From Psilocybe cubensis (lineage: Eukaryota), in NCBI GenBank assembly GCA_017499595.2, contig CM039003.1:930001-994000 (forward strand): a stretch of 64,000 nucleotides of DNA. The letters are read 5' to 3'. Positions 1 to 9,237 of this stretch are shown in pieces. How positions within the stretch are numbered: position 1 is the first letter of the stretch; the number at the start of each line of letters is the position of its first letter. A program made the position numbers and the translations under genes. Under the pieces are notes generated by a model. It was given only the letters and a program-made list of their open reading frames with translations. It searched no databases and was not told the origin of the DNA.

Positions 1-390
1 CATGAACTTAAGGCGCACTCACCTTCCAGACACACGCTCTTCGGGGCATGAACTTGAGCTTGAGCTTGAGTCTTGGATAGATCATACAAAGCAACGCCTT
101 GACCAGTTTACGACGAACGGTACATAAAAGTTGGAAGAAGACATATGTAAAGCATGAAGAAAAAACTCAATGGACCCGTGACCGTTAGGTCATGAATATA
201 GTGACCACCGGAATTAGACGCCGAACCACAATCGCATCTACGCGACTTGCAATTGGGGAAATTATGTTACGCGACAAAACGCGCTGATGATTGTTTGAAG
301 CATCGCTCACCGAGAATCCAGTTTACAGCTGATATCCCACTGCAATAGATATTCCACAACATACAAAAAAAAAAATAGGTGGTATCCAAC

Positions 391-2576
391 TCAAAGCTTC
401 GCCTTCTCCACCTCCTTCTCCTTCTCCTTCTTCGCCGCCGCCTCAAGCATATCCTTCACCTCCGTCGCCGCCTCCGCCAAATAATGCTTCAACACCCTCC
501 CATCAACCCTCTCCCCAAACCTCGAATATCCCCCCCTCAAATTCGTAATCGTCCACCTAACATAATCATCCCCAATAGCATACGCAACTCCATACCCATC
601 CTCCACCACCTCGCCGTACCCCCACCCGCTGAAGTAGGGACTGCTCAGCTGGCTCGTGCTCAGTTCCCAGTGGTTTGATTTGCTGAATGCGCCGTCGGTG
701 TATAGTGCTGGCACGGGCTCGGTGGGTTGGAGTAGCTTTTTGAGCCCGAAGAGGTGCCGGTCGACGCCGGCGCCGTCAGCGGCCCACGAGGCGTATTGGA
801 TATGTCGCGCCGCCGCGCGCGTGAACAGAGATTTCAGGTAAACCGGGTCCTACATTCGTATATATAATGTGAATACATGTCCTGTAAACCTGGGAAGAAA
901 ACACGTACGGTGATTTTAGGATCCAGCATAGCCTCAGCCCACGCTTTACTCTCATTACTCGCGCTGCGGATAACCTCCGTGCGCCCGAGCTGGTACTTGC
1001 GCGTCTGTGCGCTCTCGTACGTCACACCCGGCCGACCGTTCATCTTATGGAACGCGAGCTGCTTGATGAGCTGCGCGGTCGCGTCTGGTGACGTTTTATG
1101 GTGCTTGGTAAAGTTCTTGCCAAAGCCTTCGTAGTGCAACACCTATAGACCAACCATCAACATCAGCAAGTCATGATAAGAAAGAAAGAAGAGAAAAGAA
1201 AAAACACGTACCTGCAGATCATGCTTCCCAACAAGCTCATCAAACCTCTTTTCCGCGCCTTGCACCAGACCCTTAACCTTCTCATCCAACTCAAACACCA
1301 ACTCCTCCACCACGGGCAACTTCTCCCCATCCACCCCCTCCGGACCCAAATCCACCTTCCCCTGCGCAAGCGCCGCAAGCACAAACTCATTCATCCTCAA
1401 CGTCGGCGTCCCATCCATACACGAGTGCTCACCAAGGAACCCCGAGCGCCCATTCTCATACACCACAAGCTGATGCTTATCATACCACCGATTCCTCCCG
1501 TCGCCCACCCAGGTGCCCCAGCTGATGTCTTCGCGCGTGATGGGCTTGCTGTCGTCCAGCGCAAGCACAATCATCGCGCCCTCGATCTTCCTCAGCAGCT
1601 CCGCGTTCCTTCCCGAGGGCGATGCCGCAAGCAGCGCTTGACGCGCGTCGGCCCAGAGGTCGCGGTTGTCAGCGGTCAGCGCGCCGACGGGGTACGCGTA
1701 CGGCGTCTCCCCTGCCCGTGCGATGATATTGTTCAGCTGCGCCTCGAGCTCAGCAGCGGAGAGCTCCGCGCCGGAGGTGTTGGTGAGCGGGACGAGGAAG
1801 AAGCGGTTCTTCCGAAGAACGATGATGTGGTTGTTAGACTTTGCGTCGAATTTGGCGGCGGTGTCGGATGGCTTGACGGGGTATCTGGAGGAGTGGAACA
1901 GCCATTTGTACGAGGCCATGCACAGGGGCGCACCCCGCACTTTTTCAGGTTCCAGCCGGCCACTTTTGGGTGTGCACGCAGTCAGAAAATTGGATATCGG
2001 AAGAGTACGGCTGGATAGCTCACCTCTCGACGAGTTCGCGGAACGGGAGCATCGCTTTGATCAAGCTCGCCGCGCGCTTTGCAGGGTCCCGTCTCGTACG
2101 ATCGTCAAGATGCACGAAGAAGTAGCTGACAAACACGACGACAGGGTCGCGGTACCCCATATACGCCGCCTCGTTCCACCACTCGCTGAGCCAGCTAAGC
2201 GTCTCGGGCGCCGCTGCGCGGTCCTTCAATCGCTTTTGGAGCTCGGCGGCGAGCGGGGAGGAGAGGAAGGTGGAGACGGCGGATTTGGTTTTGGAGAATT
2301 CTTCCTGTGTGAGCAGGGGTTGTGCGGTTTCGAGGTATTTGGCGCATGTGGATTCGAGGGTGGGCACGGGGAGACGGGGGAGGGAGGCTTGGTATCGTAG
2401 CATAGGAGGCGCAGAGGCATCTATGGAGTAGCCTGGAGGCAGGGAAGAGGATTTTCTAGACATGATTGCTGGTGAACGCTGTTTCGATCGTTGTTTTGTC
2501 AGCATCGCGCACATTGGCAGGAAAAGCGACGTACGATGATACGCTTGGATGCGTTGGTAGTGGTGATTCTGAGCAT
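391..2576 (-). CDS. CAT2: Carnitine O-acetyltransferase, multi-exon, probably dual mitochondrial/peroxisomal
   Basis: Spliced ORFs give LPRLPVPTLE, NRWYDK, the catalytic GEHSCMDG motif, TYESAQTRKY-GRTE and WELSTSQL. The C-terminus is AKL (PTS1). A short first exon at 2535-2576 (MLRITTTNASKRII) splices in frame to a second ATG at 2463. Confidence 0.93.
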
Positions 2577-3780
2577 CGGCAAAGAAGTCAGCAAAGGGTG
2601 CAGAGGGAGATAGAACGAGGTGTCGGACACAGCAGGCTGGAACGACGACCTAGCTCAATCTAATCGGAAGAGTATATGTAGTGGAGATAGAGCTGAGGAA
2701 AAGTCAAAATTAGTCTAGGGTCTAAGCAGGCAAAGCAAGTCGCTCGCCACAATGTCCGCCAGCAAACTTTTTATGAGCCATCGCTCCTGTCCCTCCCGGT
2801 TACCGGCCCTCTTGGCGTCCGAGTTCACGTGAATATCTCTTCCGGCAATGACCTCCCCGAAATGTTAGTTTTTCTGCTAATTTGGGGAGCCCATCCTGAG
2901 TGAGTCGGACATCGGGTGCTGAGGTGGTGGCCATTACTAACGGCGGGGTGCTTGAGTATCATATAGATAGCAAGGCTAAACTTGACACTGACAGAAATGC
3001 GATGCTCTGAATCCCATCCGTCGGCGTATCCGGATCATCGTCATCATATCTCCACTAGTCCCGCAATCGCATATTGGTTTCTCCAGTGTGGGGTTTGCCG
3101 GGGTATGCCCATGCGCTCTTCGTGTTCTCCATCGAGCAACAAGAAATTCCGACAAGGCTTAGCTGAGAGGCTGAGGCGCTGGGACGCTGATATACGTCGT
3201 ATTCGGCTTTTGAGCACTCGTTGGTGCGCCCGTAGATTCCATTCTGCTCTCAAGTGCTACAAGATGCATGATGATGCGATGCACGGGGATCAAAGTTTGA
3301 AGTTTGAAAAAGTAAGCTTTGGCGCGTGGCCGCTCTCTCCCCCGATTCAAGCTGAGATTAAACTTACTCGGACTTGTTTAAAAACCTTGCACTCTGTACA
3401 ATTCGACATTGTTCATCTCTTGCTTTCGTTTTTTTGTCTATCTGGTAGAACTCTCGCGAAGATGAAACTATCCCTCCAGAACGAGCATAGTATAGCTGGT
3501 TTGTTTGGACTTGAGATGAGTCCCTTCAAATTGTGTTGAATGGTAATTACAACCCCCAAATGCACCCAAGTTTTTTCAATCTGATCTGATGTGCTAAACT
3601 GAGAGTGTTGCTGATCCACTCATCGATCGATATAACTAGGAATCACAAAGCCTTCATGTCATCGAGATGACACATCGATATCCCCAAGACCCTCAAAGAG
3701 TGAACGCCCTCCAGTCTTTCACAACCCACAATAGCATTGTTTTCGTGAGTAATTCTCTCCATATAACCATCCACTACAAC

Positions 3781-4067
3781 TACGACTCGGGTCCCCTATC
3801 GGCATCCATGCGCCTCCGCCTCCGCCTCAGGCTTTTTGGCTTCGGCGTGCTGTAAGCATCTCATGCAGATGCAGACGTCTACTCCATCATACGGATCTCT
3901 TCCACTGGCTGACTTTGGTCGCCTCGTATAACAGGTTGAAGGGCTGACTTTGGTCGCCTGAGGGCCGGCGAGATGGGTATGTGGGATGTTACTCCTGTAA
4001 CCCATTAAGCTTTAAGTGTTATACAGTGGGGATCTTGATGGGATGTACGAGGGGGGTCCTAGTCGTA
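3781..4067 (+). ncRNA. Intronic structured RNA, copy 1
   Basis: TACGACTCGGGTCCCCTATCGGCATCCAT (3781-3809) pairs with ATGGGATGTACGAGGGGGGTCCTAGTCGTA (4038-4067), allowing G-U pairs and small bulges. Confidence 0.62.
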
Positions 4068-4476
4068 TCATGTTTTCTAAAACTCGACGGGACATGAAGA
4101 AATCGATGACTTACACTTTATTTTGTTTTGTTGTTCTTTTAGGGTACCGAAGTATGTGGAATTGGAGTTGCCGATTCGTTGACAAACCATTCCATTCTGA
4201 AGACTTGAAATTATTTGTGAGTCAATTTCTTATAACCGTCTTGCCAGAGTTTTCAAGCTGATATTGAAACAGATGTACCCATAGAAAAACAAAGTCGGAT
4301 TTTCTTCATGCCTTACACATGTCTTCTTCCAACTTTTATGTACCTTTCCACATCAATCAGCAAGGCGTTTACGTTATCCTGGATATGGTCCCATACAAGC
4401 CCAAGCACCGAGCACCAAAAAACGTTGGTCTGTAAGGTGAGCACTCCTTCTGACTTCACATCACCCAAACCCACCC

Positions 4477-4980
4477 CGCAATGCGCAACGCGCGAAACGT
4501 AACCCCCTATCGGCATCCACGCGCCAGACTTGTACAGGCGTGGGGACAAATGGAAGGAGCTATAGGAGGTTGTCCTGCTATAAGCTGCCTACATTGTCTT
4601 CATCATCCATGCATGCATCATGAAACCCCTCCAATGCCTCGATGATTGATTACATTACATCGGCGGCGCACCGCAAGTTCCCTAACCAAGCCGATTTGCA
4701 ATTAATTGCTTTGACACTGGCACGATATTATATTTATAATAATATTGTGAATTGGTCTGTGTTGGGAAGTTGAATATGGTAGTACGGCTGACTTTGTCGG
4801 TTTACTAGTGGATTGGGTGTGGGATTTATATATATGCGTATATGTGTATGCGTATGCGTATGCGTATATCTGTGTACATGCGTATGTGTATGTGTGTATG
4901 CGTTTTCCTGTGCCTTATCTGCTTCGTGATATTGGAGGATTTGTGATGGGACGTACGAGGGGGGTTACATCGCCATTGCG
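4477..4980 (+). ncRNA. Intronic structured RNA, copy 2
   Basis: GTAACCCCCTATCGGCATCC (4499-4518) pairs with GGGACGTACGAGGGGGGTTAC (4948-4968). Distal CGCAATG (4477) pairs with CATTGCG (ending 4980). Confidence 0.62.
4830..4902. repeat. Degenerate (TATGCG/TATGTG)n microsatellite inside the loop of RNA copy 2
   Basis: Directly visible repeat. Confidence 0.8.
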
Positions 4981-5550
4981 ATTTTTTCTTCTTCCTTCCT
5001 TTCTTTCTTTGTTTCTATGGGTGTGGTTGGCTCGGACACTGACACTGACAACGATTATACAGAGAATCCGAGGGGTATGTTGTGGAGTGGATATGGGATA
5101 GTGAGGCGGTACTATTTTTTACAAGATAGGTTGCGCATATAGTTATGATTTTCGTCCAAGTTTCGTCTTCTATTATCTTCCTCCGTCCAGCTAGTGTTGA
5201 ATATATGCGGCACTTGGTAGTGCATTGCGATCGCGTTACGTGTAGAACTAGAACACTCTTTGCCAACGCGCGCAATGCCGTAGTTGTACGTAAATTATCC
5301 ATGTCATTCCTGTCGTGATCAATTTCAAGCTCAGCTTTAATCTTGTTTAGCGAGTTTAAAAAGGCTTCGTGTTCGCATCACCTCTTTACCTCCTACTCTC
5401 ACTTATTTACTCGTTTGCTCTATTGGACGATGTCTCTACTCTGACAGAACGACTGTTGCGCCTATGCAGCGCATTGTCTATGTTGTCTGTAAGGTGAGTT
5501 TCACCTTTCCACCTCATTTTCTTCTCCCACTTCCAATTTTTCGTGTTTCC

Positions 5551-5936
5551 AATATGAATCCCCTATTGGCACACACGCGTCGTAATTCGACGTGTCATCG
5601 AAGTCCTCAGCACTTCTGACGAGAACAGCTTTCACGCTGTGTTATAACATGGCGTGTCAAGCGCATACTACAAATGCAGTAGGGCACAAAAAGAAAAAGA
5701 ATGCACAACATTGTAATTGGTCTGCCCCATTGCGCGACGTGGCACGGCGCTTTGCGCTGAGCTGCTTTGGATGACGTGTATACGATGCATCGGGTCTTCC
5801 TACTAATACCAAGAGGATGTATCTGGTCATGTGTTGAGCGGTATAGGACGGGGTGTGTGGCTTTTGTAGCTGCGATACTTTGGAGAGGTCCATCCGATGG
5901 GAGTTCTTGAGTGTGTGTACGGGGGGATTTTATGTT
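5551..5936 (+). ncRNA. Intronic structured RNA, copy 3
   Basis: AATATGAATCCCCTATTGGCACACAC (5551-5576) pairs with GTGTGTGTACGGGGGGATTTTATGTT (5911-5936). Confidence 0.62.
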
Positions 5937-6084
5937 CTTTTCCTTGATCTTGTGTCATGATTTTATCTCCATTGGGGACCGACGCGGATGTGCTAACGCG
6001 TGGACACTTTTAGGAATCTGCCTACTTGGTTCAATATTGCCAGGGGTGTGCAAAGTAAGTGTTGTTGTTGCTTTGGGCATGTTG

Positions 6085-6435
6085 GATACAATCCCCTATC
6101 GCGGCCACGCACCACTAGGTGGTGTACATGACTCTATCGAGTGCTGCATCAGCACCTGAGTATGTGTGGTATACGTTCAACAAACCCTCATTCAAACCCC
6201 TACTGGAATGCTGCATCAGCATGGTTGCTATGCTCTTTCTATCGGATTGAGCAGAAGTCAGGGGAATTATCCGCAGACCATTGTTTACCAAAACCTGCGC
6301 CGTGTGGTGTTATTAACCGACGGGATGACAGTGCTTGTGTTTTCTTGTTGCTGTCTCTTGTATCTCGGCGAAGGTCGAGACCTGATTGGGGGGGGCGCGT
6401 TGAATGTATGTGGTCCGTATGAGGGGGATTGTATT
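6085..6435 (+). ncRNA. Intronic structured RNA, copy 4
   Basis: GATACAATCCCCTATCGCGGCCACGCAC (6085-6112) pairs with GTATGTGGTCCGTATGAGGGGGATTGTATT (6406-6435). Confidence 0.62.
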
Positions 6436-7771
6436 TTTTTTCCTTGCGCCTTTGCTCTCTTTGTGTTTCTTTTATTGAACTGTTGCTAACTGTATTTGTT
6501 TTGATACTTTAGATGCTCTCTGGAGAACCAGCGGAAAGTTGGATTGACAACTGGAGGACTCTTCGGTGGGTTAAAGAAGTCACAAGTGAAGTGCTTCTCT
6601 TGATTTACACCAAGGTTTGTCTGCGTACTTCATGTTATAGCTATTTTCATATCGATAGACCTATCCGCTAAATTTACACGTACACGGATAAAGAATTTTA
6701 TTGAGCGGAGCATAAAATTTAAAGACGGCAAATTACGGGAACTAGCAAAATCGTCCATGAGTATTTACAAAAAAAGTCGAGCTATGAGAACTAAAGCAAT
6801 ACCAACACATCAGCAGCATCCTAGAGACACTCCCTTCTCAAACTGAAAGGCATGTCAGCGCTTTTCTGCAAGATCGTACCATAGATTAAAATAAAATCAA
6901 CATAGGAGCATTCCTTATGTAACAAGGTTACGCAGAAATTCAAGTCCGACTGTATGAATATATTTTTACGTTGGGCCTATCGATATGAAAATAGCTGTAA
7001 ATAAATGTATTTTGTAGCAGTGTATCATCGTCCTATATAGCTGAGATGTTTGAATAATCAACTCTATTGATTATGTAGTGTGAAAAGTGTGTGCCGTAAA
7101 TCGCTTGGGTACATGTCGAGTCTTCGAGTCGGCTTTTGGTTCACAGTTTTGATCCGTTTCGGCGCTTACCGAACTCAAATAAGCGAGCCGCCAGAAAGCA
7201 AAATTTGCTTGTCGGAAGACAGGGGCTCTTCTGGGAGGACTCACGACACATGTTTTTTTTTTCTTTTGCAAAGGCTGTAAATTTGGACTCACTTCCATTG
7301 GCGCGCGTAGGACTTCAAGTTCAACGACCTTGAATGCGGGAGGGTCGCTATATAGGTCGCTATATACTTGGTTCTGATAAAGAGGCTAAAAACAAGGTTA
7401 CAAGAATAGGCTATATGTGTGTTGTACTATTTGTACTCGAGAAGAACCAAGACCAAGGCTGGATCATGCATGGTCCGGGGAATTCGAAGGCCAACCAGCT
7501 CGCGAGTCACACGCCGCGACGGTTGCAGGGTTGTCTTTTCCCAACCATCTTCGTTGTTCAAGTCTTCAAGCCTTCAAGTTTCAAGCTTCAACGTCGATAC
7601 TATACCCCAACCCAACTATCTTCAACGTCCACACCATATTTCCTTCAACGTCGATATCGACACACCATATTCCAACCGTCTTCTACGTCGACACAACCAT
7701 TTCACCCAACCATCTACCCAACCATCCACCCAACATCGACACAACCATCCAACCCAACCATCCACCCAACC

Positions 7772-8875
<1,104 letters not shown>

Positions 8876-9237
8876 TGAACAAGGTACAACTAGCGCCCGT
8901 CGCCTAATATCATGATCAATGTACTCAGGAATCAGGATCCCCCCCCCCTCAATCACTGACTTCGAATATCGAATATACCCTGGACATTTAAACCTATCTA
9001 TGTCAAATGTATGTAAAGACGAATTGATTTCCGTTTGAAGATTTTTTTTTTTTGGTGGTGTAATTTGTGATATAGAGGTTGTATTCCCTCGCTTATCTCT
9101 CCCAACTCTTGCAAAAGCGAAAAATTATAGAAATGTTCATGATATGATATACAGGCCTAGTTTAAACATCCTCTACTCGGCACGGCTTCAAGCTTCAGCT
9201 TCCGACCTCTTAATCCACGTCCACGTCCACGTCCACA

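Follow-up and report, generated by a model that had tools for sequence, protein, structure and literature searches.

Why four introns of a single fungal RNA gene should be several times longer than those around them, and why each should hold one large hairpin, is the question raised by a locus of Psilocybe cubensis. We analyzed this locus within a window of 64,000 nt (GenBank assembly GCA_017499595.2, contig CM039003.1, positions 930,001 to 994,000 of the forward strand; positions below count from the first letter of the window), in which its neighbors are a carnitine acyltransferase gene on one side and an EBP/EXPERA gene on the other. Filamentous fungi splice by recognizing short introns, and introns of 400–600 nt are outliers. 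The best answer that we can give, to which we assign somewhat less than even chances, is that the hairpins are cis-acting stems that bridge the introns and so shrink their effective length.

Splicing of the long introns and coding potential of the host

Contigs of four public runs were aligned to positions 1–9000 of the window; X1 and X2 belong to one study, X3 and X4 to a second. The records of X1 and X2 carry only the label ‘RNA?’. We treated these two runs as spliced RNA, and X3 and X4 as DNA-like, because the introns of both flanking protein genes are skipped in X1 and X2 and not in X3 and X4. In the X1 and X2 contigs, three CT..AC introns are missing from the minus-strand gene at 391–2649 and four GT..AG introns from the plus-strand gene at ∼7780–9100, while the X3 and X4 contigs run straight through the introns of both. 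All splice junctions of the host come from one study.

The four long introns that the initial annotation had predicted are all skipped, on the plus strand and with GT..AG borders, and three of them agree with the prediction to the nucleotide. Joint 4436>5063 in X1 removes the 626 nt of intron 2 (4437–5062; donor GTGAGC, acceptor ACAG, CTGAC branch motifs at 5039 and 5045), joint 5493>6014 in X1 removes the 520 nt of intron 3 (5494–6013; GTGAGT, TTTTAG, CTAAC at 5993), and joint 6054>6513, present in both X1 and X2, removes the 458 nt of intron 4 (6055–6512; GTAAGT, CTTTAG, CTAAC at 6486). For intron 1 (3745–4142, 398 nt; GTGAGT, TTTTAG) the acceptor at 4142 is exact. The X1 joint at this intron, 3731>4143, skips 411 nt with 8 other letters between, and we could only infer the donor at 3745, because the RNA strain differs from the window over the last ∼13 nt of exon 1. 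No YTRAY branch motif was found in long intron 1. A fifth, small intron of the host (56 nt) had been overlooked. Apart from the long introns, the RNA-supported introns in positions 1–9000 measure 56, 56, 59, 61, 99, 102, 119 and 149 nt; the long introns are 2.7–11 times longer than these.

Neither the contig depths (examples are 2069, 879 and 90.5 in pieces of the host and 68.6, 41.4 and 10.6 in pieces of introns) nor the gaps in X1 cover (intron 1, parts of exon 3 and 6428–6512) entered the argument, the former as a ranking of expression or copy number, the latter as evidence. Two apparent skips in X3 and X4, 4525>4586 and 4607>4799, were rejected as alignment artefacts: they have sides of 22 letters and conflict with a contiguous X3 piece, 3937–4955.

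The host RNA gene is non-coding, as had been inferred from the sequence. This conclusion is drawn because the longest ATG-to-stop open reading frame (ORF) in the joined exons has 57 amino acids, because Pfam gave no match for five ORFs of 109–190 amino acids in or beside the host locus, and because no peptide was found to be common to the exons or units of the repeated cassette described below (best E 0.008, in a tiny database).

One further X1 contig lies within intron 4. It covers 6053–6424, so that it starts 2 nt before the donor and ends in the GGGGG strand of the 3′ arm, and there is no cover over 6428–6512. Its start is where the assembly graph would be expected to fork if the 5′ end of the intron were preceded in some reads by the end of exon 4 (...GCAAA) and in others by the CTAAC branch motif (...GCUAA); both contexts end in the common letters AA. 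That the fork stems from lariat-junction reads, and hence from a stable excised intron 4, is a lead and not evidence: the contig comes from one study available as contigs only, and holes in cover prove nothing.

Hairpin elements and their conserved base

Each of the four long introns contains exactly one hairpin element, and all four elements have the same orientation, on the plus strand: c1 (3781–4067, 287 nt), c2 (4484–4980, 497 nt), c3 (5551–5936, 386 nt) and c4 (6084–6435, 352 nt). Minimum-free-energy folds close every element, with 24–45 long-range pairs and a mean pair probability of 0.75–0.95; the closing stem has 24 long-range pairs in c1, 43–45 in c2 and 27–32 in c3, and c4 has a 13-bp outer helix (6085–6097/6423–6435). 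The stems start 29–57 nt from the donor and end at 4067, 4980, 5936 and 6435, that is, 75, 82, 77 and 77 nt from the acceptor. The folds thus reproduce the distances given in the initial annotation, and its proposal of one structured RNA per long intron at a constrained distance from the splice sites (75–82 nt to the acceptor) stands.

The elements share two core arms, at 3793–3814 (5′) and 4036–4057 (3′) in c1, 4504–4525 and 4944–4965 in c2, 5560–5581 and 5908–5927 in c3, and 6093–6114 and 6407–6428 in c4. A 20-mer of the 5′ core has three matches at ≤3 mismatches against 0.01 expected, and none of 100 shuffles reaches three; the fourth copy, which contains an indel, was recovered with a regular expression and with a profile search. 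By the same two methods, no further copies were found in the exons, the 56-nt intron or the rest of the 64-kb window.

From the outside inward, the arms form a variable outer helix, a CCCCU/GGGGG clamp, a bulged A, UCG/CGA, a bulge on the 3′ side, an inner helix and a small hairpin, P3. The clamp, one U-G pair included, is invariant, as is the bulged A next to it, and UACGA is also conserved. The inner helix covaries, reading CAUCC/GGAUG, CACACAC/GUGUGUG (in c3) and GGCCAC/GUGGUC. P3 directly follows the 5′ strand in all four copies (3810–3814/3844–3848 in c1, 4521–4525/4537–4541 in c2, 5577–5582/5588–5593 in c3 and 6109–6115/6119–6125 in c4), and two of its five shared pairs change on both sides by a manual reading of the folds (MAFFT misaligned the 3′ strands of P3). 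Only c1 and c2 have an extra long-range helix, P4 (CAUCA/UGAUG); the arms of these two copies are identical at 21 of 22 positions although their interiors barely align. The 3′ arm of every element also contains a hexamer that resembles a 5′ splice site, GUAYGR (GUACGA at 4045, GUACGA at 4953, GUACGG at 5917 and GUAUGA at 6417), paired with the 5′ arm and 96–110 nt upstream of the acceptor.

The stem bears the marks of a structure conserved at the RNA level. Covariation was measured on one alignment (A2) of 25 stem pairs, or 98 cells, against 500 shuffles. Of these cells, 83.7% pair, compared to 74.9 ± 2.3% in the shuffles, none of which reaches the observed value. Nine of the 25 stem pairs change on both sides, a number reached by one of the 500 shuffles, and the covariation score is 0.393 compared to 0.194 in the shuffles, with none of the 500 reaching 0.393. 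When the partner strand is slid by 1–3 columns, 36–56% of the cells pair and 0–4 pairs change on both sides. In all four elements, the better fold is that of the transcribed strand and not of its complement, and G-U pairs at two stem positions are conserved in all four copies.

The excess of folding stability and the conservation lie in the closing stem and the adjacent hairpin, and three of the four interiors show neither. We place the excess in the arms because the whole elements beat dinucleotide shuffles (z = –2.34, –4.73, –3.36 and –4.24 for c1 to c4), while two host exons (z = +1.31 and +0.48) and three of the four interiors do not. Folded alone, the interiors of c1 to c4 give z = –0.9, –4.0 (–2.1 without a microsatellite), –0.8 and –0.9; the 3′ intron tails have z of about 0. 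In c1, the interior differs between strains: X3 and X4 have 72 letters in place of 53 nt of the window. The base of the hairpin domain thus looks to be the part under selection, and the interior looks like tolerated filler.

Within these interiors we noted three repeats. An 18-mer in c1 (within 3884–3959) recurs 35 nt apart, in the stretch that is replaced in related strains; a hairpin-forming 16-mer in c4 (within 6139–6221) recurs 67 nt apart; and c2 contains the GT/GC-rich microsatellite, an imperfect GTATGC/GT repeat at 4824–4915, which gives a spurious match to mir-297 (E 5e-5; 40 bits versus a gathering score of 90).

The four copies are paralogous. Collinear blocks recur at spacings of 711–1072 nt and in a fixed order, an upstream motif (3346, 4252 and 5324), a donor-side 14-mer, the 5′ arm, short interior blocks and the 3′ arm. 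Alignment between copies is limited to the arms and a few short blocks, and the arms score 39–42 against shuffled maxima of 23–28. The donor-side 14-mer GTCTGTAAGGTGAG is identical at 4428 and 5485, which is the common exon end that the initial annotation had seen at two donors. Because the collinear blocks recur at this spacing, the locus is best described as a tandem array of an exon–intron cassette of roughly 0.7–1.1 kb, and the cassette duplication suggested at the outset gains support.

The elements did not resolve to any known RNA. Rfam gave no match at the gathering score over the whole window, and at E ≤10 only miRNA- and small nucleolar RNA (snoRNA)-like noise on the microsatellite at 4824–4915, far below the gathering scores. 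The C-box patterns RUGAUGA and UGAUG[AU] occur in none of the four long introns, and ACA occurs within 10 nt after the stem in none of the four elements. With no C box, no ACA after the stem and no Rfam match, snoRNAs were rejected as the cargo; on this point the likeness to snoRNA host genes that had been drawn from the sequence fails. A canonical k-turn, a hammerhead core and a group II domain 5 were rejected on reading the sequence, and a (D1,2) stwintron was rejected for the lack of an AG before UACGA. No direct repeats of the kind left by target-site duplication flank the stems.

Proposed bridging stems and competing explanations

How would a stem at this place help? In the mechanism that we propose, the closing stem would form in the pre-RNA once the 3′ arm has been transcribed, looping out an interior of 212–407 nt that evolves fast and readily gains or loses sequence. 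Looping would leave 29–57 nt to the donor and 75–82 nt to the acceptor. The effective lengths of introns 1 to 4 come to 36+75, 47+82, 57+77 and 29+77 nt, or 111, 129, 134 and 106 nt; the spliceosome would then see an intron of 106–134 nt, within the 56–149 nt that it handles locally, and the stem would act as a ‘zipper’ in cis that allows oversized introns to splice. We favor bridging because the part that appears to be selected is the base of the hairpin and the interior looks like filler, and we infer that the stem forms in vivo and promotes splicing. The initial annotation had named stems that simply bridge long introns as an alternative to its own model. The confinement of structure to the arms fits that alternative; the bulged A and P3 are left unexplained by it.

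There is precedent in yeast. Zipper stems are an established aid to the splicing of long yeast introns, with a yeast-derived criterion of 42–85 nt for the total linker from donor over stem to branch point (PMC12350175). The stems studied here obey the position rules of that paper, ending 54–68 nt before CTRAC motifs in introns 2–4.

A number of points weigh against bridging. The total linkers measure 83 nt in intron 4, 109–115 nt in intron 2 and 117 nt in intron 3, so that one of the three introns with a recognizable branch motif falls within the yeast limit (PMC12350175). That limit was derived for the yeast spliceosome, and ordinary introns next door here reach 149 nt. A bridge alone does not need an invariant bulged A, a conserved UACGA or a covarying P3 hairpin. 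Nor is it clear why splicing efficiency should be selected in a non-coding RNA, or why long interiors should escape deletion; we see no evident reason for either. The arm-to-arm duplex energy is matched by 1, 5, 18 and 29 of 200 dinucleotide shuffles (z = –2.6 to –1.1). The covariation comes from four paralogues in one genome, and the structure that was tested was derived from the same four. Finally, bridging is argued from predicted structure.

The initial annotation had proposed a polycistronic, splicing-released system of non-coding RNAs. Its splicing, its non-coding host and its one element per intron were recovered here, while snoRNA-type cargo was not, and the model now reads as a host gene whose introns release structured RNAs of a new, non-snoRNA class, a reading that is possible but on the unlikely side. 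The intron would be spliced out and debranched, and then trimmed by exonucleases to the stem-closed domain, in which a conserved core (clamp, bulged A, UCG/CGA and the P2/P3/P4 junction) would bind a protein and a variable interior would be tolerated, as in Y and vault RNAs. We keep this model alive because bridging alone leaves the conserved unpaired bases and the covarying P3 side hairpin, present in all four copies, without explanation. The spacing of the elements (29–57 nt to the donor, 75–82 nt to the acceptor) suits it, as do the c1 and c2 arms, so nearly identical under interiors that hardly align. Against it stand the lack of snoRNA boxes and of an Rfam family, and the three of four interiors that are neither conserved nor more structured than shuffles. 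A more specific version, in which a dedicated non-coding host carries an undescribed class of non-snoRNA intron-borne RNAs, each defined by its CCCCU/GGGGG-clamped closing stem and by a conserved three-way-junction core that would recruit a protein, with at least intron 4 persisting, possibly as a lariat, we regard as doubtful.

The distribution of the locus also bears on this model. We searched 80 metagenome loci anchored on CAT2, the carnitine acyltransferase gene, comprising 516 kb. In these loci, no motif pairs of the element were found, a profile search gave no match better than E 6.5, and blastn of positions 2650–7600 gave only one 27-nt chance match. A metagenome scan with the 22-mer core gave no matches. 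Three of the 80 loci also encode EBP. In L034 (4955–7300) no more than about 0.5 kb separates the two genes; in L028 (2700–9300) the 6.6 kb between them holds two NACHT-domain genes; and in L018 the EBP gene is found on the opposite flank of the acyltransferase gene. The initial annotation had suggested a check of synteny between CAT2 and EBP in relatives: the host locus is absent from both relatives that keep the gene neighborhood (L034 and L028), a point against a released RNA. We regard the host gene as lineage-specific.

An introner-like or otherwise proliferating family of structured introns, in which the hairpin serves its own propagation or retention and the four copies arose by duplication within one gene, is improbable. 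Introner-like elements are longer than regular introns and have stable predicted structures with compensatory mutations, intron duplications within the same gene are a recognized class (PMC3609843), and the sister (stw)introns of Hypoxylaceae have terminal inverted repeats of 45–55 nt with no Rfam match and no flanking duplications (PMC8469720). Our elements resemble these in length, stable predicted structure, compensatory changes and the lack of an Rfam match and of flanking duplications. However, introner-like elements are defined by many near-identical copies in unrelated genes, and the copies here are old and divergent, with none outside the locus in the 64-kb window or in the 516 kb of related fungal contigs (580 kb together). 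The stems do not lie at the intron termini, and in related strains the DNA contigs continue across the elements into flanking sequence that is unique.

Conservation is highest in two 22-nt stem segments that face each other under a variable loop, in tandem paralogues, and in c1 and c2 the rods extend via P4 to about 45–50 bp. This arrangement recalls polycistronic microRNA (miRNA) clusters and fungal microRNA-like RNA (milRNA) clusters, in which tandem paralogous hairpins on one non-coding transcript have conserved ∼22-nt arm segments and variable loops. If the elements were a cluster of substrates for Dicer or RNase III, the small RNAs could have the common 5′ sequence CCCCUAUCG as their seed. 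We consider this quite improbable: the rods are broken by bulges and a three-way junction, and many positions of the putative mature sequence are not the same in copies 3 and 4 as in copies 1 and 2, with compensation, which is unlike miRNA paralogues.

About as improbable is an explanation built on the GUAYGR hexamers, in which pairing with the 5′ arm would hide an alternative donor and force use of the distal one, and the isoform would change once some factor opened the stem, much as the TPP (thiamine pyrophosphate) riboswitch switches isoforms in fungal introns. The hexamer is present in all four copies, 96–110 nt from the acceptor, which is an ordinary intron size, and a real GTACGT donor is used in the neighboring gene. 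However, none of the 15 joints listed, out of 21, starts at a GUAYGR site, the hexamer may be conserved merely as part of the stem, and the host has no coding frame to regulate.

Miniature inverted-repeat transposons or foldback insertions, whose complementarity would be kept only at the DNA level, are extremely unlikely even though the arms are imperfect inverted repeats and the immediate neighbor (6635–7000) is a genuine repeat whose terminal inverted repeats measure 50 nt, since the stems lack target-site duplications and have complementary rather than directly repeated flanks, the outermost arm bases vary while the inner ones are fixed (transposon ends show the opposite pattern), the G-U pairs that are conserved and the better folds of the sense strand point to pairing in the RNA, and the four copies are collinear cassettes in the same orientation.

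Host exons, neighborhood and comparison with known systems

The host exons, all on the plus strand, are defined by the joints described above. Exon 1 (3689–3744), which contains no long ORF, has an undefined 5′ end; the RNA contig begins at 3689 with a fold-back loose end. Exons 2a (4143–4216) and 2b (4273–4436) are separated by the ordinary 56-nt intron (4217–4272; RNA joint 4216>4273). Exon 3 (5063–5493, 431 nt) is the unstructured exon with z = +1.31 and includes a repeat of the cassette upstream motif at 5324–5340. Exon 4 (6014–6054) has 41 nt, with both of its flanking joints on one contig. Exon 5 (6513–6634) has an undefined 3′ end and abuts the repeat with terminal inverted repeats at 6635–7000. 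The cassette upstream motif is TTCAAGCTSAG with TTTAAAAA after it. Since this motif is present both ahead of exon 1 (3346–3400) and inside exon 3 (5324–5366), the locus may consist of two tandem transcription units instead of one, the second possibly starting near 5370–5450; the RNA contigs are compatible with either. In unit 2, the motif (4252–4268) forms the 3′ end of the 56-nt intron.

The element directly after the last host exon spans ∼366 bp, its 50-nt terminal inverted repeats being 76% complementary. The contigs of all four runs break at it, with several differing loose ends at 6916 and 7000–7002. It has the appearance of a miniature inverted-repeat transposon that forms a dispersed repeat. 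Relatedness between strains is mosaic along 446–6662: the X3 strain has no differences from the window in 1094 nt over 5569–6662, and 96 differing positions and 47 gap positions over 446–3883.

A Pfam search identified Carn_acyltransf (E 6e-71) and EBP/EXPERA (E 1e-10) domains in the flanking genes, which confirms the guess, made from the sequence, that CAT2 and EBP flank the locus. In two metagenome fungi, the EBP and carnitine acyltransferase genes are divergent neighbors, and the slot between them appears to gain new genes repeatedly.

Four paralogous long introns, each with a compensated closing stem, amount to a natural experiment in how RNA structure helps an intron-definition spliceosome to cope with length. 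Should the stem-closed domains instead prove to be stable RNAs, we would be dealing with a host gene for cargo of a new kind, young and absent from syntenic relatives, which would bear on the origin of host-gene architectures. The locus has traits of snoRNA host genes, of zipper-stem introns and of introner-like elements and is a member of none of these; literature searches did not find a described match to its hairpin-closed introns.

With miRNA and milRNA hairpin clusters, the locus has in common its tandem paralogous hairpins with opposing conserved arm segments of ∼22 nt and variable loops. It differs in its very large, branched loops, in a stem that is interrupted by a junction, in arms that have diverged between copies and in having one hairpin per intron.

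The resemblance to snoRNA host genes, of the UHG/GAS5 type or the box C/D clusters I–V of Neurospora crassa (PMC2780460), lies in the spliced non-coding host with one structured RNA per intron. Unlike theirs (PMC2780460), the cargo here has neither C/D nor H/ACA boxes and no Rfam match. It is also larger (287–497 nt versus about 70–250 nt), its conservation is confined to the closing stem and one side hairpin, its release is putative, and the locus is not kept in the two syntenic relatives.

The elements are like the introner-like elements of Dothideomycetes and the (stw)introns of Hypoxylaceae (PMC3609843, PMC8469720) in being long, with stable predicted structure and compensatory changes, and in having no Rfam family and no target-site duplications. 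They differ in being four old, divergent tandem copies in one non-coding gene instead of many near-identical ones in unrelated coding genes, and in that the inverted repeats are not terminal but internal, 29–57 and 75–82 nt from the intron ends.

Closest to the bridging that we favor are the zipper stems of RPS17B and RPL7B in Saccharomyces cerevisiae, (PMC12350175): in both cases the introns greatly exceed the usual length, and a segment downstream of the donor pairs over a long range with one that precedes the branch point. By comparison, the stems here are much longer (24–45 pairs), the linker exceeds 85 nt in two of the three measurable introns, and a conserved sequence core recurs across four paralogous introns of a non-coding host.

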